From an uncultured bacterium (GTDB lineage Bacteria; Patescibacteriota; Patescibacteriia; Patescibacteriales; UBA12465): 64,000 nt of DNA. The translations under genes and the position numbers were made by a program. This document shows, one piece after another, positions 13,336-27,879 of this stretch; the stretch's first letter is position 1; each line of letters begins with the position of its first letter. The DNA is taken from assembly GCA_938003925.1 (NCBI GenBank), contig CALKWQ010000022.1, positions 26,278-90,277 of the forward strand. Reading direction: 5' to 3'. Below the pieces are notes generated by a model that searched no databases, was not told the DNA's origin, and worked only from the letters and a program-made list of their open reading frames with translations.

Positions 13336-14124
13336 CTAACGCCAGCCCCACTTTTTAAAATATTTCCACCAAGATTGTAAATGAATTCGCGCTAAACGAT
13401 CACTGAAAATAGCTTGATACCAAGGCAAACGAGCGCTATCCCGCATATGATCATGGGTAACCTGGGCCACGGGATGATAGATAACCTTCTTGCCGAGTTG
13501 CTGGGCTCGACGACACAAGTCAACATCTTCAAAATACATAAAAAAACGTTCATCAAACAAATTACCAAACTGAAAAAGCTCATCGCGACGTACTAGAAAA
13601 CAAGCTCCCAAAATCCAATCTACTGCTCTGCTGGCCCGGTGGTCTTCATGTCGCATTAGATAGCGATCTACTAAAGCTGGCAAATACCTACCTAAAGATG
13701 TCCGACGTAAAACTGGCAAGAAAATACTAGGAAAGCGGGCACAAGAATATTGCAAACTGCCGTCTGGATTTAACAATTGTGGGGCCACCACTGCCGCCTC
13801 GGGATGAGCTTGCAAATAAATGTATAATTCCTTGATACTGGATGGACTAAAAACTAAATCTGGGTTAGCAATTAAAATAAACTTACCTCGACTATGTTTA
13901 ATACCGAGGTTGTTGCCGCCACCCATACCTAAATTACGCTCGCTAATTAATAAGCGTACCTTGGGATAAGCGGCAAGCAAACTTTCAAGCTGGTCGCCGG
14001 AATTATTTTCCACGACAATGATTTCATGATCAATATCATCAAAATCAACCTTCTGTAAAGAAAGCAGACAGTTTGCTAGCTTCGTTTGACTTTTATAATT
14101 TACAATAATTATTGATAAGTCCAT
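13336..14124 (-). CDS. glycosyltransferase family 2
   Basis: 262 aa. N-terminal LSIIIVNYKSQ...VVENNSGD and a later DxD-like FEDVDL. Confidence 0.8.
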   Translation of the reverse strand: MDLSIIIVNYKSQTKLANCLLSLQKVDFDDIDHEIIVVENNSGDQLESLLAAYPKVRLLISERNLGMGGGNNLGIKHSRGKFILIANPDLVFSPSSIKELYIYLQAHPEAAVVAPQLLNPDGSLQYSCARFPSIFLPVLRRTSLGRYLPALVDRYLMRHEDHRASRAVDWILGACFLVRRDELFQFGNLFDERFFMYFEDVDLCRRAQQLGKKVIYHPVAQVTHDHMRDSARLPWYQAIFSDRLARIHLQSWWKYFKKWGWR

Positions 14125-14125
14125 A

Positions 14126-15184
14126 TTATTGTCTCAAGAGACTAATCAGTCGTCGCATTACTTGAAAATAAGCGTTAAAGAGTGGATTGGCTACATATTT
14201 CAATAAAGGGTGATCAATCTCCTGATACCAAATACGCCCAGAAAATAAAGGTAGTATTTTATAATCCGGTAAACGGCGCGATCGCTTAGCCGAACGTCTT
14301 GCTTCTAAAAGGTATAGCCAATGACGTGGCTGAAAGAAATAAGACCAAGCTCGGCGTTTTTCTTTAAACCAACCAGAACGCAGAGAAAAAAAGCTCATGC
14401 CGATTTCCATCGTAATTAAAGCTGGAAAAAATAACAGTAGAGATAAGGCGGAGTAATTTTTCCAAGCAGCTAACAAACGATTGCGCTCCATCCAGTAATA
14501 CTTACTAACCGATCGGCTGAATTCATATTTATGGTAAGCCACTGCACGATTAGCTATAAGACACTCCCAGCCGGCTAACCAAAAACGCCAACCCAAATCT
14601 TGATCTTCATTATACATCCAGAATTCTTCGTCAAATAAACCCACAACGCGCAAGGTCTCGGCGCGCAATAAAACACAGGCGCCCGAAGGATAAGCAATTT
14701 TTTTAACTTCCTTGCCGTCGTCAACAAAGGACTGGCGATAACCTTGGCAATAACCAAAGCCCAAAAAATGAGTAGCGTTGCCAAGACTGTTAACTAATTC
14801 TCGGTCCGGGTCCAGCATTAAACGTGCTTGAATAGCGCCAGCTTGAGGATATTTCTCCGCCATTGATACCAATTCTATTAAAGCATCTGGGGCCAAAGAG
14901 GCATCCATGTTGAGCAACAAGATATAATCATAGCCGGCAGTCAATAAATAGCGCAGAGCGTCGTTGTTACCCTTAGCAAAGCCGTCATTATTGGTGTTCA
15001 AGATTAATTTAGCTTCTGGAGCCTGAGCACGTAAAAAAGAAGCGGTTTCCTCGGTACTAGCATTATCAACGATTACTAACTCTGGTTGTAATCCTGGCTC
15101 CAAAGCACGAATAGACGACAAACAAGGAGCTAAAAATCGCTCCGCATAATCTTTATAATTTACCAGCACGATAGCTACCTTCAT
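14126..15184 (-). CDS. glycosyltransferase family 2
   Basis: 352 aa. VAIVLVNYKDY...VDNASTEE, NEDQDLGWR, and a C-terminal membrane-associated tail. Confidence 0.8.
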   Translation of the reverse strand: MKVAIVLVNYKDYAERFLAPCLSSIRALEPGLQPELVIVDNASTEETASFLRAQAPEAKLILNTNNDGFAKGNNDALRYLLTAGYDYILLLNMDASLAPDALIELVSMAEKYPQAGAIQARLMLDPDRELVNSLGNATHFLGFGYCQGYRQSFVDDGKEVKKIAYPSGACVLLRAETLRVVGLFDEEFWMYNEDQDLGWRFWLAGWECLIANRAVAYHKYEFSRSVSKYYWMERNRLLAAWKNYSALSLLLFFPALITMEIGMSFFSLRSGWFKEKRRAWSYFFQPRHWLYLLEARRSAKRSRRLPDYKILPLFSGRIWYQEIDHPLLKYVANPLFNAYFQVMRRLISLLRQ

Positions 15185-15187
15185 ATC

Positions 15188-16033
15188 TCAAGCAAATATC
15201 TTAGCTAATAATCGTCCTAAAGGCCAAAAAGAGCGTAAGATTACATAATGCCAACGCGGCTGCCATTTTTGAAAATAAGCAAGCATAGAGTCTTGAAAGT
15301 AACGCTGCTTTGCCGGTACTTTCACCTGTCCAAAACTCTGTCCAACATAATCAACACATTTAACTGTGGGCGTATACCAGACTTCCCCGCCATTTTCATA
15401 CACCTGGCGACAAAAGTCAACTTCTTCAAACCAGATAAAATAACGTTCATCTAAAAAAGGTTTTTCAGCTCCAGTCAACTCTCGCCAAGCACTACGATTA
15501 ATCATAAAGAAAGCCCCACGGATAGAGTCAACTAGCGCTGCTTGATTATAGTTAAAATTGACCTGCAGATAATCGTCCAGTATATGCGGTAAGAGGTGGG
15601 GTAGCTTCAAAACTACGGCCAATTGATCACGTAGGCGCGGAAAACGCCTAACGTGGGGTAAAAGGTCGCCGGTATCAGTTATTAGGCGACAACCAGAGAC
15701 TACTGCTTGCGGGTGCGTCTGCGCCCACGACAACATACCACTAATCGTCTCCGGGAAAACTTTCATATCAGGATTAAGCAGGAGAATATAATCACCACTC
15801 GCTCTACGTAAGGCTTGATTATTAGCCTTAGCAAAGCCAGCATTGTGCCTATTAGCAATCAACTGTACTTGTGGAAACTCCATTTTCAACATCTCTATCG
15901 TACCATCTTGAGAATTGTTATCTACTACCCACACTTCAGCATCAATATTAGCTAAAGAGGGCAAGAGGGCGGCTAAATTGGCCCTCAGCTTGTCTTTTAC
16001 CTTCCAAGAAACAATGATGATAGAAACATCCAT
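15188..16033 (-). CDS. glycosyltransferase family 2
   Basis: 281 aa. VSIIIVSWKVKD...VDNNSQDGT and FEEVDFC. Confidence 0.8.
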   Translation of the reverse strand: MDVSIIIVSWKVKDKLRANLAALLPSLANIDAEVWVVDNNSQDGTIEMLKMEFPQVQLIANRHNAGFAKANNQALRRASGDYILLLNPDMKVFPETISGMLSWAQTHPQAVVSGCRLITDTGDLLPHVRRFPRLRDQLAVVLKLPHLLPHILDDYLQVNFNYNQAALVDSIRGAFFMINRSAWRELTGAEKPFLDERYFIWFEEVDFCRQVYENGGEVWYTPTVKCVDYVGQSFGQVKVPAKQRYFQDSMLAYFQKWQPRWHYVILRSFWPLGRLLAKIFA

Positions 16034-16047
16034 AAATAAGAATGACT

Positions 16048-16320
16048 TTATTTGCTTTTCACTTTGATGCGCTTTAAACGCGCGCCACCACCAGCAGTAA
16101 TTTCTACTAATTTACGACTAACTCCAAAGGCGGTAGCAATAAAGTTAATAACCTCAGCGTTGGCCTGACCTCTCTCTGGAGCTGCCTTAACCTTCAGCCG
16201 CCTAGTACCATCAGCCAGAGACTCCTGCCAAGCCGTCTGATCAGCCCCAGGAGAAACTTTGATGTGAAAAGAAATTTTACCGCGCTCACGCAAGTTCGCC
16301 TGGAGTTCTGCAATATCCAT
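16048..16320 (-). CDS. DUF167 (YggU-like) family protein
   Basis: 90 aa. IKVSPGADQTAW...LKVKAAPERGQANAEVINFIATAFGVSRKLVEITAGGGARLKRIKV matches the remembered YggU pattern. Confidence 0.7.
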   Translation of the reverse strand: MDIAELQANLRERGKISFHIKVSPGADQTAWQESLADGTRRLKVKAAPERGQANAEVINFIATAFGVSRKLVEITAGGGARLKRIKVKSK

Positions 16321-16323
16321 AAA

Positions 16324-17562
16324 TTATTGTTTAAAAATCAAAGCATTTGGCACCTTTCGGCCAGGACCGACCATGTATTCACCGTTGTAGATCAAAGCCG
16401 AAGAAGAACCACCATCTAAATTTAAGGCGTAATCCATGCCCATAGCTTTCATAATAACGGCTAAATCATCCACCGTCGCCTGACGAGCAATGACAATAAA
16501 CAATTCGCCATATCCCGGTCTGGTAGCAGATTCGCGATAACCGATAGCGTTGCGCCAATATTTTCCGGTCTTCTGTCCTTTATCTAACTCCCATTCAATC
16601 AAGACATTCATTTTATCCTCTACTAACCTAGGCTTATTTCCCAAAGCTGCTTGTAATTTTACTCCATAATTATGCTCAAAATCAGCCGGACTTTGAAAAT
16701 CACGAGCATCCTTAAAATAATAAAAGCGATTACTGGTATCAAAAGCAATCAAAGGGCCGGTGGTCCAATATTTAAGCTGGTCTTGATTGACCATGATGCC
16801 GGTCAGAGTATCATAAACTGGGAAAAAATAATAATTGGCTTGACCACAACCAGATGAAGAACAAAAATAACTACCGTTCACACCAGCAAAACCATCTTGA
16901 GCAAATACGTAGTCGGCTAAGCTTTTAGCAGCACAACTGCCGCTACTACAAACCGCCGAGTCGGCAGCGGCGCTAATAATTTGCAATTGAGGATTTTTTA
17001 AATCAATCTTTAAAACATCCACTTTAAATTCTCCCCGCTCCGTCGTCACACTAGTTAACTCATAACTACTATAAGCATTTAGACTCTCGCTTAAACCAGG
17101 CTTATGAATTAAAGCCAAATCACTGCGAGTAATACCAAGACCTAATTCCCGCATCACCTTAAAAGCGTCCTCGGGGCGACCCAAATAATATTTTTTTAAA
17201 TCGCTAGGATTAACATACCAGGCCTCACCATTCTTCTCTACTTGCAAAATAATACGTCCGGCCAAACGGACCGACAACTCTTCATTGCCGGAAATAGGCA
17301 TACCAGCTTGAGCGATTTCTTGAAACTGCAACTCATTGATACCCAAACCCAATTCCCGCATCACTTTAAAAGCATCGGCCGGGCGACCTAAAAAATAACG
17401 ACGCTGATCTACTGGATTAATATACCAGGCTTCACCGTGTTCTTCCACACTTAAAACAATACGACCAGCCAGCTTGTCAGCTAAAGACGCTGCCCGGCTA
17501 GCAGTTGGCCAACAGATTAAAGCTACAACACCAGCTACCAATAAATATTGCCAATATTTCAT
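16324..17562 (-). CDS. secreted phosphodiester glycosidase (NAGPA/DUF2233-like) protein with duplicated N-terminal module
   Basis: Start moved to MKYWQYLLVAG (signal or TM anchor). The C-terminal NLDGGSSSALIYNGEYMVGPGRKVPNALIF is typical of the family. Confidence 0.6.
   Translation of the reverse strand: MKYWQYLLVAGVVALICWPTASRAASLADKLAGRIVLSVEEHGEAWYINPVDQRRYFLGRPADAFKVMRELGLGINELQFQEIAQAGMPISGNEELSVRLAGRIILQVEKNGEAWYVNPSDLKKYYLGRPEDAFKVMRELGLGITRSDLALIHKPGLSESLNAYSSYELTSVTTERGEFKVDVLKIDLKNPQLQIISAAADSAVCSSGSCAAKSLADYVFAQDGFAGVNGSYFCSSSGCGQANYYFFPVYDTLTGIMVNQDQLKYWTTGPLIAFDTSNRFYYFKDARDFQSPADFEHNYGVKLQAALGNKPRLVEDKMNVLIEWELDKGQKTGKYWRNAIGYRESATRPGYGELFIVIARQATVDDLAVIMKAMGMDYALNLDGGSSSALIYNGEYMVGPGRKVPNALIFKQ
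17107..17472 (-). repeat. intragenic tandem duplication (two ~53 aa modules, 69 aa period)
   Basis: LAGRIVLSVEEHGEAWYINPVDQRRYFLGRPADAFKVMRELGLGINELQFQEI (17314-17472) aligns with LAGRIILQVEKNGEAWYVNPSDLKKYYLGRPEDAFKVMRELGLGITRSDLALI (17107-17265). Confidence 0.85.
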
Positions 17563-17738
17563 AAAAATAATGTAAAAAATAGCCGCCAACTGATTAGAAA
17601 ACTTATCCTTAGTGTAGCTTTTTTTTGATAAAAAATCAACGCAAATAAGATTAAAGCTATCTTGTCAATATTTAATAAATTTCACTTCTATACTACAATT
17701 AAGAAGGCAGACAAAATCCATGCCGCAACAATAAACAT

Positions 17739-18236
17739 ATGAGCGAAACAACTCCTTACATCCGCCCCACCTGGGACGAATATTTTATGAACATCGTGGA
17801 GATGGTTGGGTCTCGCGGTAGTTGTGATCGTGGCAGAGCTGGTTGCATTATTACCCGCGACCGCCGCATCATCTCTACCGGCTACGTCGGCTCTCCAGTT
17901 GGCCTGCCTCACTGCGACGAAGTCGGTCACGAGATGCACACCGTCACCCATCCTGACGGCAGCAGCAGCCGTCATTGTATCCGCACTACTCACGCCGAGC
18001 AAAATGCTATCTGTGAAGCTGCGCGCATGGGCATCGCCATTGGTGGTGGAACTCTGTATTGCAAAATGACCCCGTGCTACACATGCGCTAAAATGATTAT
18101 TAATGCCGGCATCAAACGCGTAGTTTGCGCCCAAGACTACCACGCCAGTGCTCGCAGCAAGGAAATTTTCGCTGAAGCCGGTCTAGAGTTGACCCTGTTG
18201 TCCGAAGAAATGACCACTTATAAAGACATGAAATAA
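17739..18236 (+). CDS. deoxycytidylate (dCMP) deaminase, ComEB-like
   Basis: 165 aa. Zinc motifs HAEQNAI and PCYTCAKMIINAGIKRVV, with an N-terminal WDEYFM. Confidence 0.9.
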   Translation: MSETTPYIRPTWDEYFMNIVEMVGSRGSCDRGRAGCIITRDRRIISTGYVGSPVGLPHCDEVGHEMHTVTHPDGSSSRHCIRTTHAEQNAICEAARMGIAIGGGTLYCKMTPCYTCAKMIINAGIKRVVCAQDYHASARSKEIFAEAGLELTLLSEEMTTYKDMK

Positions 18237-18246
18237 GCTAATCTAT

Positions 18247-19536
18247 ATGGCTAAAATTTTTATCTATGACGAGTTCAGCCCAGAAGACCTCGCCATGATG
18301 CAAGCACTATATTCACGTAGTCCTAAAAGTGTAGCAGAACACGTAGAAAAAGTTAGACAAAGTGGTTCCGGCAAGTTTATGTCTACTTTTTACGTCGGCT
18401 ACGGACATGCTTCTATTGCCGATTGCGGCAGCACCACCATCTTTATTGAAGGCATCAGCATCTTAGCAGATAAAGCTATCCAGGATTGGCCCCTCTATAG
18501 CGGACAAGAAACCAGCACGCGTTATATTGATATGGCCCAAAGACCAATTATCGACCCGCTAGCAACCGAGGAATCTGGTATAATTTTAAAAAAATGGATG
18601 GATTTCTACGTTAACGGTCAGGAGCAGTTAAAACCTTATCTAATTGAAAAGTATCCTATCAAAGCAGGAGAAGATGACAAAGTTTATCAAAAAGCTATCG
18701 CTGCCCGCGCTTTTGATATTATGCGCGGCTTTTTACCGGCTGGAGTGACTACACAACTTAGCTGGCATAGTAATCTCCGGCAAGCTTGGGACAAACTCGC
18801 TCTACTCCGACACCACCCCTTACCTGAAGTCAAAGCTATTGCCGAAGAGATATTGGAACAGTTAAAAGCTAAGTATGCCAACAGTTTTTCACACGAACTT
18901 TACCCGGAACAAGAGGCTTACCGTGCTCAGATGGCTGAAAAATATAGTTATTTTAGCGCTAGCAATCCTGTCGAATTTTCTTTTAGTCATAATATTGATA
19001 AACAAAAGATACAAAATTACCTAGATGTTTTAACTGATCGCCCCATAAAAACCAATTTACCTTATTTTATGGGTGATTTGGGCGCTTGCCATTTTGAATT
19101 TTTACTAGACTATGGCTCCTTTAGGGACATCCAGCGCCACCGTAGCGCTATTGCACGCATGCCTCTATTAAGCACGGAATTGGGATTTCAATCATGGTAT
19201 CTGGAACAATTGCCAGACGACATGCGCCAAACTGCAGAAAAGCTTATCGCCGAGCAAAAGCAAGCCATAAATACTCTGCCCACTGATGATAAACAAAAAC
19301 AATACTACATTGCCATGGGCTTTAACGTATCCTGCAGTTTTCACGCACCACTACCTTCAGCCGTATATGTTACCGAATTGCGCTCAGGCAAAACAGTCCA
19401 CCCCAGTTTAAGAAGAGTCGCGCACGCCATGTGTAACGCAATGCGTGCAGAGCTGCCAGAGGTAAAACTATACTGTGATTTAGACCCAGATGATTGGGAT
19501 GTCAGGCGTGGCCTACATGATATAATTAAGAAATAA
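18247..19536 (+). CDS. tandem two-domain ThyX-like protein (putative flavin-dependent thymidylate synthase)
   Basis: 429 aa. The N-half resembles ThyX (GHASIADCGSTTIFIEGISILADKAIQDWPLYSGQETSTRY; RGFLPAGVTTQLSWHSNLRQAWDKLALLR). The C-half resembles it again (HFEFLLDYGSFRDIQRHRS; YVTELRSGKTVHPSLRRVAHAM). It sits between the dCMP deaminase and Tmk genes. Confidence 0.55.
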   Translation: MAKIFIYDEFSPEDLAMMQALYSRSPKSVAEHVEKVRQSGSGKFMSTFYVGYGHASIADCGSTTIFIEGISILADKAIQDWPLYSGQETSTRYIDMAQRPIIDPLATEESGIILKKWMDFYVNGQEQLKPYLIEKYPIKAGEDDKVYQKAIAARAFDIMRGFLPAGVTTQLSWHSNLRQAWDKLALLRHHPLPEVKAIAEEILEQLKAKYANSFSHELYPEQEAYRAQMAEKYSYFSASNPVEFSFSHNIDKQKIQNYLDVLTDRPIKTNLPYFMGDLGACHFEFLLDYGSFRDIQRHRSAIARMPLLSTELGFQSWYLEQLPDDMRQTAEKLIAEQKQAINTLPTDDKQKQYYIAMGFNVSCSFHAPLPSAVYVTELRSGKTVHPSLRRVAHAMCNAMRAELPEVKLYCDLDPDDWDVRRGLHDIIKK

Positions 19537-19545
19537 ATAGATACT

Positions 19546-20100
19546 ATGCCCAAAATGATTCTCGCCTTCGCCGGTAAGTTGGCCAGCGGTAAAGCAGTTT
19601 GCCAACAATATATCACCGAAAAATATAATGCCGACAATACTAGGTTTTCCACTTCTTTGCGTGATGTGCTCCAGCGCCTACACCTACCTATTTCTAGAGA
19701 GAATCTACAAAACCTATCTTTAGATCTCAGGAATCGTTTCGGCAGTGACGTACTCGCACGCACTATTGCTGAAGATGTAAAAAATAGTCAGAAAGATATT
19801 GTGGTCATAGATGGCATTAGAAGACTAGACGATATCAACAATCTAAAAGGACTACCTGGTTTCCATTTAATCAGCGTTGATGCTTCCCCAGAGAAACGAT
19901 ATGAGCGCATGAAGGAGCGCAACGAAAATGCCGGTGACGATAAAAAAAGTTTTGCCGATTTTCTAAGAGACGAAGCTGGCGAATCAGAATTACAGATTCC
20001 CGCTGTTATGGCTGCTGCTAATTTTCACTTAGACAATAATGGCGATTTAGAGCAGCTGCATGAACAGATTGACAAAATGGTACAAGAGATACAAAATTAA
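19546..20100 (+). CDS. P-loop nucleotide/nucleoside-monophosphate kinase-like protein
   Basis: 184 aa. Walker A AFAGKLASGKAV, VIDGIRRLDDI and ...RYERMKER. The pattern is dephospho-CoA-kinase or dNMP-kinase-like. The substrate is not assignable. Confidence 0.5.
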   Translation: MPKMILAFAGKLASGKAVCQQYITEKYNADNTRFSTSLRDVLQRLHLPISRENLQNLSLDLRNRFGSDVLARTIAEDVKNSQKDIVVIDGIRRLDDINNLKGLPGFHLISVDASPEKRYERMKERNENAGDDKKSFADFLRDEAGESELQIPAVMAAANFHLDNNGDLEQLHEQIDKMVQEIQN

Positions 20101-20182: not shown

Positions 20183-21535
20183 ATGTCCGATTATTCTGGA
20201 AAATTTATTGTTATTGATGGCACAGATGGTAGTGGAAAAACCACCCAGCTGCAGCTTTTGGTAGGCAAGCTTACTTCTGAAGGCTACTCCGTAGAAATTG
20301 CTGATTTTCCCCAATATAACACCAAGTCTGCCGGCATGGTAGAAGAATATTTATCCGGAAAATACGGTGGCGCCGATGACGTCAACCCCTATGCGGCCTC
20401 CCTGCTCTATGCTTCTGACCGTTTTGACGCCAGTTTTCAAATTAGAGATTGGCTAAAGCAGGGCAAAATAGTGGTCTGTAATCGTTACGTTTCAGCTAGC
20501 TTCGCCCATCAAGGAGGCAAGATTGCCAATGCTTTAGAGCGTAAATTATTCTTCAACTGGCTCAGCGAAATTGAGTACAAAATTTTTAATATCCCCAAAC
20601 CAGATCTCTATCTAATATTACATGTAGAAGCAGAAATCGCTCAAAAAATGGCTAAAGATCGTGGCCGAGAAGACTGGAAAGGTAAAACCAAAGACATTCA
20701 CGAAGATAACATCAATCACCTCAAACAAGCGGAAAAAGTATATTTAGAAATCGCTCAAAATATGCCTGATTTTCGCCTGGTGAAATGTACTCGCAACGGT
20801 GAAATCATGAGCCGCGAAGATATTCACTACTTGGTTTGGCTATACGCTAACCGTATCCTCAATGTCAGTCAGCACAAGGCTGCGCCAGACTTCCAAGCTG
20901 TCAGCGATATCTTAATTACGAAAGGCAAATTAACGCCAAATTTACCCGAACTAACCATGGCGCCGCGAGCCGTTATTTCTAGCCCTATATTAAATGTCAA
21001 CATTTCTACAGACCGGGGACTGCCGGCTCATCCTGAAACAGCAGAAAATTCCACGCCAAAGCAAGACTTGATAACCACAAATGCAACCAACGCCAAATCA
21101 CTACAAACCTTTACTGATCTACAGGTAGAACGGTTGCGACCAGAGGCCAAGTTGCCCACCAGAGCTCATACTAATGATGCCGGCCTAGATTTGTATGCTG
21201 CTGAAGACTATTCTATCCCCCCTTACGGACAAGCCCTGGTCGCTACTGGGCTTAAAATAGCCATACCTGATGGCTACGCCGGCTTGGTGTGGGACAAAAG
21301 TGGTCTAGCTAATCATGGCTTTACCACAATGGGTGGAGTTATTGATGCTGGCTACAGAGGAGAAGTCAAAGTAGTGTTTAAAAACCTCAGCGAAGACATA
21401 TATCACATTGAAACTGGACAGAAAATCGCTCAACTACTAATCCAAAAAGTTGAAACTCCTAATATTATAGAAACTAAAATTTCTGATCAACCGGCTCGGG
21501 GTGAAAGCGGCTTTGGCAGTACCGGACAATGCTAA
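20183..21535 (+). CDS. thymidylate kinase - dUTPase fusion protein
   Basis: 450 aa. The N-terminal Tmk part has FIVIDGTDGSGKTTQLQLL...DRF. A low-complexity linker of about 80 aa follows. The C-terminal Dut part has NDAGLDLYA, GVIDAGYRGEVKVVF and RGESGFGSTG. Confidence 0.85.
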   Translation: MSDYSGKFIVIDGTDGSGKTTQLQLLVGKLTSEGYSVEIADFPQYNTKSAGMVEEYLSGKYGGADDVNPYAASLLYASDRFDASFQIRDWLKQGKIVVCNRYVSASFAHQGGKIANALERKLFFNWLSEIEYKIFNIPKPDLYLILHVEAEIAQKMAKDRGREDWKGKTKDIHEDNINHLKQAEKVYLEIAQNMPDFRLVKCTRNGEIMSREDIHYLVWLYANRILNVSQHKAAPDFQAVSDILITKGKLTPNLPELTMAPRAVISSPILNVNISTDRGLPAHPETAENSTPKQDLITTNATNAKSLQTFTDLQVERLRPEAKLPTRAHTNDAGLDLYAAEDYSIPPYGQALVATGLKIAIPDGYAGLVWDKSGLANHGFTTMGGVIDAGYRGEVKVVFKNLSEDIYHIETGQKIAQLLIQKVETPNIIETKISDQPARGESGFGSTGQC

Positions 21536-26100: not shown

Positions 26101-27879
26101 CTACTTATTAATTTCTAACTGCTGCAAACGATACAGACCAAACCTGCCGCGCCGCTCTTGCAGAACTAGTGTAAAACCAAAAGACGGTAAACGCCTTTCA
26201 TTTAAATACCGCAGATCTTTATCAGGAAAGGCAAAATTATAATAATACACCGGATAATGTGTTAAGAGTTGACCCAGGCTAGCATTAACAGCATCGTTAG
26301 TTAATAAAGCGTTAACTACTCGTCTTTCTGGAAATAACTGCTTGTCGTGATATTGAGTCACAATAATAGCCCCCGCCTCAGTGGCTTGTAAAATAAACCG
26401 AGAGTTAGCTTTATCAGCGAAATGATTATAATACAAGATAGCCAGGCCCTCTTCTGAGCCGAAGACGGTAAATAAACCTGACCACAGCATCCAAATGCCC
26501 ACTAATAATGACGTAATTCCAACGAACACCAATTGACGCGCCCATTGGTGCCAGCGTACCGAGGAACTAGCCTTAATTAACTGCGAAAACCAGCGGGCAC
26601 AACTTACAATAAATAACGAAGCTAAAGGTAGGGCTAAAATATACATGGGCAACCAATAGCGGGTATAGGAATTACCAATAGTAAAACGTCGAGGGTCAGG
26701 GTTATCATTAAACTTCCAACTGCCATAATAAAATACCAAAATAACCGATAGTAATAGCCACAACAAAAGATACAAATAAGCACCTCGTTTAGGGTGACGT
26801 AAAATACGAATTAAAAAGATAACTCCCCCCAAAAAACTCAGAACACACAATAGAGGAAACATCACGACCACATAATAAAAAAACATCTTCAAAGACTGCC
26901 GAGGTTGATAACCAAAATAGAAAATGTTATCTAAAACGACGGTAGCAACCTCCTGATACTGAGTAAATTGTCCTCGGACACTGGCTTGCAATAATTGACC
27001 GCTCGCTTGTGATAATTCGCTTAAAGACTGATTCATCTCGCCATAACCGCCAGAAACGGGGGAGGCATATAATATTTGGTTCCAATAAAACAGGGGCAAT
27101 AAAGCTAATAACACTCCGGCAGCAGTCATAACTAAACGCGTCAAACCAAAACGACGAGCATAGAACAACCAGGCTAAAAATAAACTTGGAGCCAACCACA
27201 ACAATTCAGAAGTTCTAGCAGCGACGGCACCACCCAACATTAATCCGGCCAATAAAGACCAGAGATAAGTCCACCACGTGGTAGTAGATAAACGCCAACA
27301 CCAAAAAGATGTCCGCTCTAACTTTCGGCGCGGCATGCTTAATAATAATAAATAAGCCGCTGCCAATAAAAATACAACAAACAAGACATTATGGAACAGA
27401 CTACGAGTGGTGTAGAAAAAATAAACAGGGAAAGAGGCCAATAAGAAAACTGAAACTAAGGCTATCTGACGTCCAAATAAACGACGAACAAAACCGTAGA
27501 AAAATAATAAACCCAAGGCTGCGAAAGCTGGAGTTAAATAAGGAATAACTGCTGTCCCAATCCAAGCTGCGATTTGGCCATACACCAAAATAATACCCAA
27601 AAAACTCACCGGCTTTAACCAGCCATGATCAGAACGGATGCTACGCGGATGTACAATTTCTTCCGTAATTAAATTAGCTGGTTCAAAAACAGCAATTTCA
27701 CCACTTTCAGCATAATGACGAGCAAAAAAATAATTAGCCGTTTCGTCGGGCGATAGAAATTTCACGTAATCAGGGGTTTGTGTCCGATAATTAAACACTG
27801 AAGTCGCCACGAAAAAACCAGCCACCAATAGACCTAGGAGAATAAAATCAAAATTTTGCCAAAACCAGCGTAATTTCAT
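26101..27879 (-). CDS. GT-C-type (ArnT/PMT-like) polytopic membrane glycosyltransferase, putative
   Basis: Start moved to MKLRWFWQNF (27879). More than 10 TM helices. The first extracytoplasmic loop carries LSPDETANYFFARHY, resembling the DE motif of ArnT/PMT-type enzymes. Confidence 0.55.
   Translation of the reverse strand: MKLRWFWQNFDFILLGLLVAGFFVATSVFNYRTQTPDYVKFLSPDETANYFFARHYAESGEIAVFEPANLITEEIVHPRSIRSDHGWLKPVSFLGIILVYGQIAAWIGTAVIPYLTPAFAALGLLFFYGFVRRLFGRQIALVSVFLLASFPVYFFYTTRSLFHNVLFVVFLLAAAYLLLLSMPRRKLERTSFWCWRLSTTTWWTYLWSLLAGLMLGGAVAARTSELLWLAPSLFLAWLFYARRFGLTRLVMTAAGVLLALLPLFYWNQILYASPVSGGYGEMNQSLSELSQASGQLLQASVRGQFTQYQEVATVVLDNIFYFGYQPRQSLKMFFYYVVVMFPLLCVLSFLGGVIFLIRILRHPKRGAYLYLLLWLLLSVILVFYYGSWKFNDNPDPRRFTIGNSYTRYWLPMYILALPLASLFIVSCARWFSQLIKASSSVRWHQWARQLVFVGITSLLVGIWMLWSGLFTVFGSEEGLAILYYNHFADKANSRFILQATEAGAIIVTQYHDKQLFPERRVVNALLTNDAVNASLGQLLTHYPVYYYNFAFPDKDLRYLNERRLPSFGFTLVLQERRGRFGLYRLQQLEINK

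Follow-up and report, generated by a model that had tools for sequence, protein, structure and literature searches.

We analysed a 64,000-nucleotide stretch of DNA (the window; positions 26,278 to 90,277 of contig CALKWQ010000022.1) from an uncultured bacterium of the Patescibacteriota (UBA12465), in which a gene on the forward strand, at positions 18247–19536, codes for a 429-residue protein that joins two highly divergent ThyX domains in one chain. This gene probably encodes a flavin-dependent thymidylate synthase, in which ThyX has been duplicated in tandem, the active-site residues have been divided between the two copies, and chains act in pairs. Our confidence is high for the ThyX fold of each half and the complementarity of their residues, moderate for thymidylate synthase activity at composite sites, and a little lower for a dimer bearing two such sites. 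The comparisons described below support the existence of a cryptic tandem ThyX with catalytic residues sorted by role, which is found widely among Patescibacteria and also in some large phages.

Two divergent ThyX domains in a single protein

Databases name the homologues of this protein 'FAD-dependent thymidylate synthase' (FAD, flavin adenine dinucleotide). A first-pass annotation, made from the sequence alone, had recognised two ThyX-like halves in the 429-residue product, a view that our analyses uphold for each half by different means. It had predicted two matches to the Pfam Thy1 model (PF02511), and had counted one or no match against the idea; a single match was obtained, covering amino acids 18–209 only (E-value 7e-17; 62.2 bits, for a gathering cut-off of 24.8). 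The second domain was revealed only by structure prediction followed by Foldseek searches, and by profile–profile alignment.

The N-half (amino acids 1–215; positions 18247–18891, forward strand) is thus identified by Pfam, by alignment to Mycobacterium tuberculosis ThyX with HMMER, and by HHalign, which aligns it with canonical ThyX at a probability of 96.9% and an E-value of 1.5e-10. For the HHalign comparisons, the canonical set comprised Thermotoga maritima TM0449 together with M. tuberculosis and Corynebacterium glutamicum segments, and the query profiles were built from 132 diverse family members, namely the query and representatives of clusters at 50% identity; the same 132 sequences served for all conservation counts given here.

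The C-half (amino acids 216–429; positions 18892–19533, forward strand) is cryptic. Searched alone against Pfam with E-values up to 10, it gave no match, and phmmer against the PDB returned noise only for it. A hidden Markov model built from 59 close homologues and compared with the ThyX chains of the PDB recognised only the N-half. By contrast with these sequence searches, the AlphaFold2 (AF2) model of the isolated C-half (mean predicted local distance difference test score, pLDDT, 90.5) retrieved ThyX structures as all of its top Foldseek matches in the PDB, with E-values down to 2e-6 and a probability of 1.0. These include the enzymes of PBCV-1 (4fzb/2cfa), T. maritima (1kq4/1o2b) and M. 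tuberculosis, and the superpositions reach template modelling (TM) scores of 0.55–0.65 across about 200 of the 214 residues. HHalign also aligns the C-half with canonical ThyX (P 2e-5, 161 columns).

The full-length AF2 model, computed from an alignment of 59 homologues, has a pLDDT of 86 and a predicted TM score (pTM) of 0.85, and its best PDB matches in Foldseek are ThyX structures, including M. tuberculosis ThyX. The ThyX-related fold foreseen in the first-pass annotation is therefore found in the full-length and the isolated C-half models alike. Within the full-length model, the order of secondary-structure elements of amino acids 3–209 recurs in amino acids 244–402. The two halves align to each other weakly yet co-linearly when the 132 diverse sequences are used, with amino acids 159–212 placed on 351–405 (HHalign, 52 columns, P 0.008); from a shallow alignment, the same comparison of the halves gave no significant match. 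An assembly or fusion artefact is ruled out, as the length and architecture are kept across thousands of sequences.

By fold and by Pfam match, the protein belongs to the ThyX superfamily; it falls outside two other definitions of the family that we tried, the contiguous signature motif and the NCBIfam equivalog model TIGR02170. The motif, RHRxxSxxxxSxR(Y), is absent from either single domain, the N-half reading DWPLYSGQETSTRY and the C-half RHRSAIARMPLLST, and becomes complete only when the halves are combined. The Arg that activates uracil in canonical enzymes (R174 in T. maritima, R199 in M. tuberculosis) is present as R379 in the HHalign alignment.

Division of the catalytic residues between the halves

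In the enzymes of M. tuberculosis and Helicobacter pylori, one active site draws the R95-H96-R97 triad and R199 from a subunit A, S71 and R190 from a subunit B, and R87, the backbone of Q103, S105, R107 and the Y108 lid from a subunit C (PMC6514825). Sorting the corresponding positions of the tandem protein by these roles across the 132 sequences gave a clear-cut picture: residues with the A role are conserved only in the C-half, those with the B and C roles only in the N-half, and the B-role residues have no C-half equivalents. This supports a complementary split that agrees, residue by residue, with the published subunit assignments, and the pattern lies far beyond chance: in the 132 diverse members, most retained residues are 96–100% conserved and no reversion is seen at the lost ones, as is also true of phage homologues sharing 23–33% identity.

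The N-half lacks the RHR triad and retains the Ser/Arg/Tyr loop as well as the His/Ser and Asn-x-Arg elements. Its residues were mapped with HMMER onto M. tuberculosis and C. glutamicum ThyX, in agreement with HHalign to T. maritima. In M. tuberculosis numbering, H54 corresponds to H69, S56 to S71, I72 to R87, D80-W81-P82 to R95-H96-R97, S85 to S100, E88 to Q103, S90 to S105, R92 to R107, Y93 to Y108, R160 to R172, N176/R178 to N188/R190 and R188 to R199. The H54-A55-S56 segment (positions 18406–18414; H53/T55 in T. maritima), assigned to the subunit B role on the flavin and folate side, is conserved at H54 in 129/132 sequences and at S56 in all 132. At the canonical RHR position, both the HMMER and HHalign alignments place D80-W81-P82 (positions 18484–18492). 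The loss of the triad in the N-half, already noted in the first-pass annotation, thus stands, although its equivalent lies one residue to the right of the Q79-D80-W81 then proposed. Position 80 is Asp in 108 of the 132 sequences, and Arg is absent from its five commonest residues, which cover 127/132; position 81 is variable, and position 82 is Pro in 82/132.

The second part of the ThyX motif is found in the N-half as S85-G-Q-E88-T-S90-T-R92-Y93 (positions 18499–18525), within the YSGQETSTRY stretch at amino acids 84–93 that had been quoted correctly. It is attributed the subunit C role in dUMP (deoxyuridine monophosphate) binding and lid formation, and is almost invariant, with S90 and R92 in every sequence, E88 in 128/132 and Y93 in 127/132. 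R160, in the sequence MRGFLP (positions 18724–18726; R147 in T. maritima), is assigned by the alignments and kept in 127/132, its C-half counterpart being Q352/Y353. N176-L-R178 (positions 18772–18780; N163/R165 in T. maritima) is assigned to FAD binding in the subunit B role, and R178 is conserved in 107/132. R188, the N-half equivalent of the uracil-activating Arg, has decayed and is present in 35/132.

The C-half shows the converse pattern, having kept the RHR triad and the uracil-activating Arg and lost the Ser/Arg loop. HHalign places the T. maritima segment ARQWFRHR on SFRDIQRHR, so that R74 corresponds to R293, R78-H79-R80 to R297-H298-R299, and, further on, R174 to R379. The segment R293-D294-I-Q-R297-H298-R299 (positions 19123–19143) holds the sole RHR triad of the protein and its upstream Arg, assigned to the subunit A role towards the FAD phosphates and dUMP; R293, D294, R297 and R299 are each found in 132/132 sequences, and H298 in 117/132. 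The triad at amino acids 297–299 (positions 19135–19143) and the SAIARMPLL that follows it are as first described, and RHRSAIARMPLL is likewise present as quoted, as are the later helix patterns reported for both halves. Downstream of the triad, S300–T310 (SAIARMPLLST; positions 19144–19176) confirms the loss of the Ser/Arg loop, which is replaced by a conserved hydrophobic segment, P306-L307-L308, with P306 in 125/132; the positions equivalent to S88, R90 and Y91 are occupied by L307, S/T309 and a variable residue. In R379-S-G-K-T-V-H385 (positions 19381–19401), R379, which would activate uracil in the subunit A role, and H385, sited two residues past T. maritima H178, are both invariant (132/132). 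A merely degenerate C-half is ruled out by the invariance of its key residues.

The N-terminal segment comprising amino acids 11–59 (positions 18277–18423) has AF2 pLDDT values of 43–58, yet ranks with the best-conserved regions of the protein and carries the invariant S23-R24 and Y52-G-H54-A-S56. It may become ordered only in the oligomer or upon ligand binding.

Proposed assembly and reaction

From this distribution of residues, we infer an oligomeric state, a number of sites, flavin binding and a reaction, all of which are set out here as a model. The C-half would act as subunit A, its R297-H298-R299 triad holding the FAD phosphates and ribityl chain and R379 activating the uracil. The N-half would provide H54, S56 and N176/R178 on the flavin and folate side in the subunit B role, and E88, S90, R92 and Y93, which would bind the dUMP phosphate and close the lid, in the subunit C role. 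The sites of a 222 tetramer would use the subunit triples (A,B,C), (B,A,D), (C,D,A) and (D,C,B). With A and D taken as C-halves, and B and C as N-halves, the triples (A,B,C) and (D,C,B) would be complete and the remaining two dead. Two chains would thus pair as a pseudo-222 tetramer (N, C, N', C') with one true twofold and two pseudo-twofold axes, in which each live site would be made of one C-half and both N-halves (C + N + N'), and the two degenerate sites would have neither RHR nor the Ser/Arg loop. Two chains would be needed per site because one N-half holds both the B- and the C-role residues and cannot occupy both positions. The covalent pseudo-dimer first suggested for this protein, in which the halves of one chain complete each other, therefore holds as to the complementarity of the halves, which follows the subunit roles, while a single chain is probably insufficient for a complete site. 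With regard to the pathway, dUMP from the adjacent deoxycytidine monophosphate (dCMP) deaminase and Dut would be converted to thymidine monophosphate (dTMP), which the adjacent Tmk would then phosphorylate.

A more far-reaching version, which we regard as rather unlikely, would make the protein an obligate asymmetric pseudo-heterotetramer on which most Patescibacteria and some jumbo phages rely as their only thymidylate synthase, with the dead sites rebuilt as a new binding site. Such rebuilt pseudo-sites might lie around invariant residues specific to the C-half, namely R265, D288, R293/D294, W317-Y318, Q352-Y353, Y374, R389 and R421, and could bind the reductant, a substitute for folate or a nucleotide acting allosterically. 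If this were true, they would alter the reduction or the regulation of ThyX in organisms of minimal metabolism.

Several points weigh against a thymidylate synthase with composite sites. The protein scores 23.9 bits with TIGR02170, the thyX equivalog model, and so misses by far its cut-off of 87.9 bits. The C-half contains invariant residues without a canonical role (R265, D288, D294, W317, Y318, Q352, Y374, R389 and R421), and R293, the counterpart of T. maritima R74, is invariant in this half, although M. tuberculosis R87 is assigned to subunit C. The TM0449 sequence used with HHalign is presumed to be correct, as it agrees with all published residue numbers. Neither thyA nor a second thyX was found in a search that covered the 64-kb window only, and thyA has been reported in some Patescibacteria (PMC12455944).

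Alternative explanations

The same composite site could belong to a ThyX-fold flavoenzyme of other substrate or chemistry, such as methylation of uridine monophosphate (UMP) as in PolB, methylation or hydroxymethylation of dCMP, or synthesis of a modified phage base. The score below the equivalog cut-off and the many invariant residues without canonical counterpart would fit such an enzyme, as would the occurrence of homologues in jumbo phages, which often modify their DNA, and the presence of PolB structures among the Foldseek matches. We nevertheless judge it quite unlikely, given that the residues recognising uracil and the dUMP phosphate (R379, S90, R92, Y93 and R160) are conserved, that in most loci the gene is flanked by a dCMP deaminase on one side and Tmk/Dut on the other, with a fusion to a dCMP deaminase in one cluster (P0118), and that dTMP synthesis is counted in the minimal gene repertoire of Patescibacteria (PMC12455944).

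A monomer, with one complete site built from its own N-half and C-half and with H54, S56 and R178 put to other use or placed in a rearranged geometry, is also unlikely, if slightly less so. AF2 yields a confident and compact two-domain monomer (pTM 0.85), and herpesvirus dUTPase offers the precedent of a duplicated monomer mimicking an oligomer. On the other hand, one N-half cannot place both its B- and its C-role residues in the canonical geometry, and the segment with H54 and S56 (amino acids 11–59) is modelled with low confidence in the monomer, as would fit a missing partner; in canonical ThyX, three subunits are required per site (PMC6514825; PMC11940539). It is very improbable that one half only is catalytic and the other a degenerate structural or regulatory appendage, as might be suspected from the recognition of the N-half alone by Pfam and from the roughly twofold faster evolution of the C-half. 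Neither half appears self-sufficient, since the N-half has no FAD-binding RHR and the C-half no Ser/Arg/Tyr loop, and the C-half residues R297, R299, R379 and H385 are found in 132/132 sequences and kept in phages as well. The pairing of two chains with role-sorted halves is our preferred explanation.

Relation to known enzymes

Canonical homotetrameric ThyX, also named FDTS (T. maritima TM0449, M. tuberculosis Rv2754c, H. pylori, PBCV-1 A674R), has the same fold as both halves, the same total set of residues (equivalents of RHR, S..S.RY, H53, R147, R165 and R174) and the same pathway context. The tandem protein differs from it in having two domains per chain and residues partitioned by role, and would form a dimer with two sites instead of a tetramer with four. 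Leduc et al. (PNAS, 2004) reportedly regained activity by combining ThyX mutants that had been inactivated in different ways. Those hetero-oligomers were mixed in the laboratory from point mutants of a single gene, whereas the complementation in tandem ThyX is fixed by fusion and evolutionarily conserved. C. glutamicum ThyX (3fnn/3ge9), Thermus Thy1 (6j61) and the PolB UMP/dUMP methylase (4p5a), all of ThyX fold and among the Foldseek matches, differ from the tandem protein in that each of their chains has just one ThyX domain, with the motif complete; in Thermus Thy1, the additional domain is described as one added at the C-terminus rather than another copy of ThyX. The ThyX of Chlamydia, at about 529 residues, is approximately twice the usual length and might be a tandem protein or kin to this family; Griffin et al. 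(2005) are said to have characterised it biochemically. In the monomeric dUTPase of herpesviruses, intragenic duplication has replaced a homo-oligomer and spread the catalytic motifs over two copies. Like tandem ThyX, it is an enzyme of nucleotide metabolism; unlike it, it has an unrelated fold and is a true monomer with one site.

A full-text literature search retrieved no description of a tandem, duplicated or two-domain ThyX, nor of ThyX architecture in the candidate phyla radiation (CPR)/Patescibacteria, and there is no tandem ThyX among solved structures. The design is invisible in databases because Pfam and TIGR02170 annotation misses half of the protein. ThyX is an antibacterial target whose defining peculiarity is its three-subunit active site, and a natural, ancient and widespread tandem form, in which duplication and fusion sorted the residues by role, would be evolutionary proof of this architecture. 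It would also offer 'subunits' that can be addressed one by one in work on half-site stoichiometry and flavin reduction, and bears on the dTMP supply of Patescibacteria, whose metabolism is minimal.

Distribution in bacteria and phages

Among the candidates scored, more than 4000 proteins match at an E-value of 1e-3, one of them 100% identical, and almost all of those listed are 428–438 residues long. At 50% identity, 499 clusters match with E-values below 1e-30. Two narrow peptide patterns alone retrieved 403 encoding stretches in species-representative genomes. The bacterial homologues come from Falkowbacteria, Saccharimonadales, Uhrbacteria, Moranbacteria, Paceibacterota and other Patescibacteria, and a full-length homologue is also carried by a 2.9-Mb bacterial contig.

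With regard to phages, homologues from the Vibrio jumbo phages vB_VmeM-Yong and BONAISHI (ORF269) share 33% identity over 95–97% of the protein. Full-length tandem homologues were also found in Microcystis phages, including Mvi-JY20, and on a 324-kb phage-like metagenome contig, where the gene adjoins a thymidylate kinase. The phage and phage-like genes (L081, 3899–5341; L082, 3920–5305; L083, 2917–4335; L085, 5001–6581) are mostly annotated as coding for hypothetical proteins. Three aligned Vibrio and Microcystis phage homologues (23–33% identity) show the same invariant residues. In support of the packing of the two domains, an independent BFVD model of one phage protein can be superposed on the full-length AF2 model along its whole length with a TM score of 0.85, and the BFVD model of a second phage protein reaches 0.70.

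Nonsynonymous divergence (pN) is 0.07–0.17 in the N-half and 0.19–0.29 in the C-half, for a synonymous divergence (pS) of about 0.8 at which synonymous sites are saturated. Judged by these values, both halves are under purifying selection, with the C-half evolving about twice as fast.

Weaker matches, over about 280–470 columns and with TM scores of 0.25–0.43, were obtained with 'thymidylate synthases' of 370–510 residues from Bacillus phage SP-15, Roseobacter phage RD-1410W1-01 and others, which may be further two-domain variants. A ThyX-like subgroup of about 370–385 residues (P0297–P0300, P0305, P0306, P0320, P0323, P0326 and P0349) lies in length between the single-domain enzymes (about 220–250 residues) and the 430-residue family.

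Gene neighbourhood

The gene had been placed between those of dCMP deaminase and Tmk, which is accurate upstream, where the deaminase is the direct neighbour; downstream, a P-loop kinase comes first and Tmk second. The dCMP deaminase (positions 17739–18236, forward strand; Pfam dCMP_cyt_deam_1, E-value 3e-22), which would supply dUMP, ends 10 nucleotides before thyX. The UPF0200/AdkA-like P-loop kinase (positions 19546–20100, forward strand) begins 9 nucleotides after it and is identified by PDB 3lw7/3h0k (E-value 6e-15) and NCBIfam PRK08356 (E-value 1e-22). It is followed on the same strand by a Tmk-Dut fusion of 450 residues (positions 20183–21535), with Pfam matches to Thymidylate_kin at amino acids 11–197 and to dUTPase at amino acids 321–448, separated by a spacer of about 120 residues without family match, and then by gatB.

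Synteny was surveyed in a sample of 80 loci, taking into account same-strand matches near tandem thyX. A dCMP deaminase match, usually directly upstream, is present in 63/80 loci, the kinase in 69/80, Tmk-Dut in 69/80 and gatB in 57/80. In many of these loci, the Tmk-Dut match covers the Tmk part or the Dut part only, and the two are sometimes separate genes. Most of the 80 loci show the same order as the window (dCMP deaminase, thyX, kinase, tmk/dut, gatB), with the kinase located upstream in some. Furthermore, a natural fusion of a dCMP deaminase (PF00383/PF14437) with tandem ThyX exists in P0118, a protein of 613 residues from a cluster of 18 sequences.

The NCBIfam model NF041025, for an anti-phage deoxycytidine triphosphate (dCTP) deaminase, is matched at positions 77–209 by the kinase and at positions 336–394 by the dCMP deaminase, and this pair of genes resembles the kinase-plus-deaminase architecture split in two.

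In one locus (L023, 3636–5854; JAZDEZ010000024.1), an open reading frame (ORF) of 132 codons located upstream of tandem thyX is chimeric. Its first 94 or so residues are 61% identical to the N-terminus of Escherichia coli ThyA, and its last 50 or so are a near-exact repeat of the C-terminus of the dCMP deaminase, whose gene lies 1.3 kb upstream. The 94-residue piece is a remnant of thyA and not a whole gene; the chimeric ORF looks like the product of an insertion into the deaminase gene with duplication of its 3' end, or of a mis-assembly.

Directly upstream of the gene group in the window, positions 13336–17589 of the reverse strand hold three consecutive ORFs resembling, by eye, family-2 glycosyltransferases. 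They are followed by a gene for a 421-residue protein with two internal repeats, a counterpart of which has a Pfam match to NAGPA (phosphodiester glycosidase).

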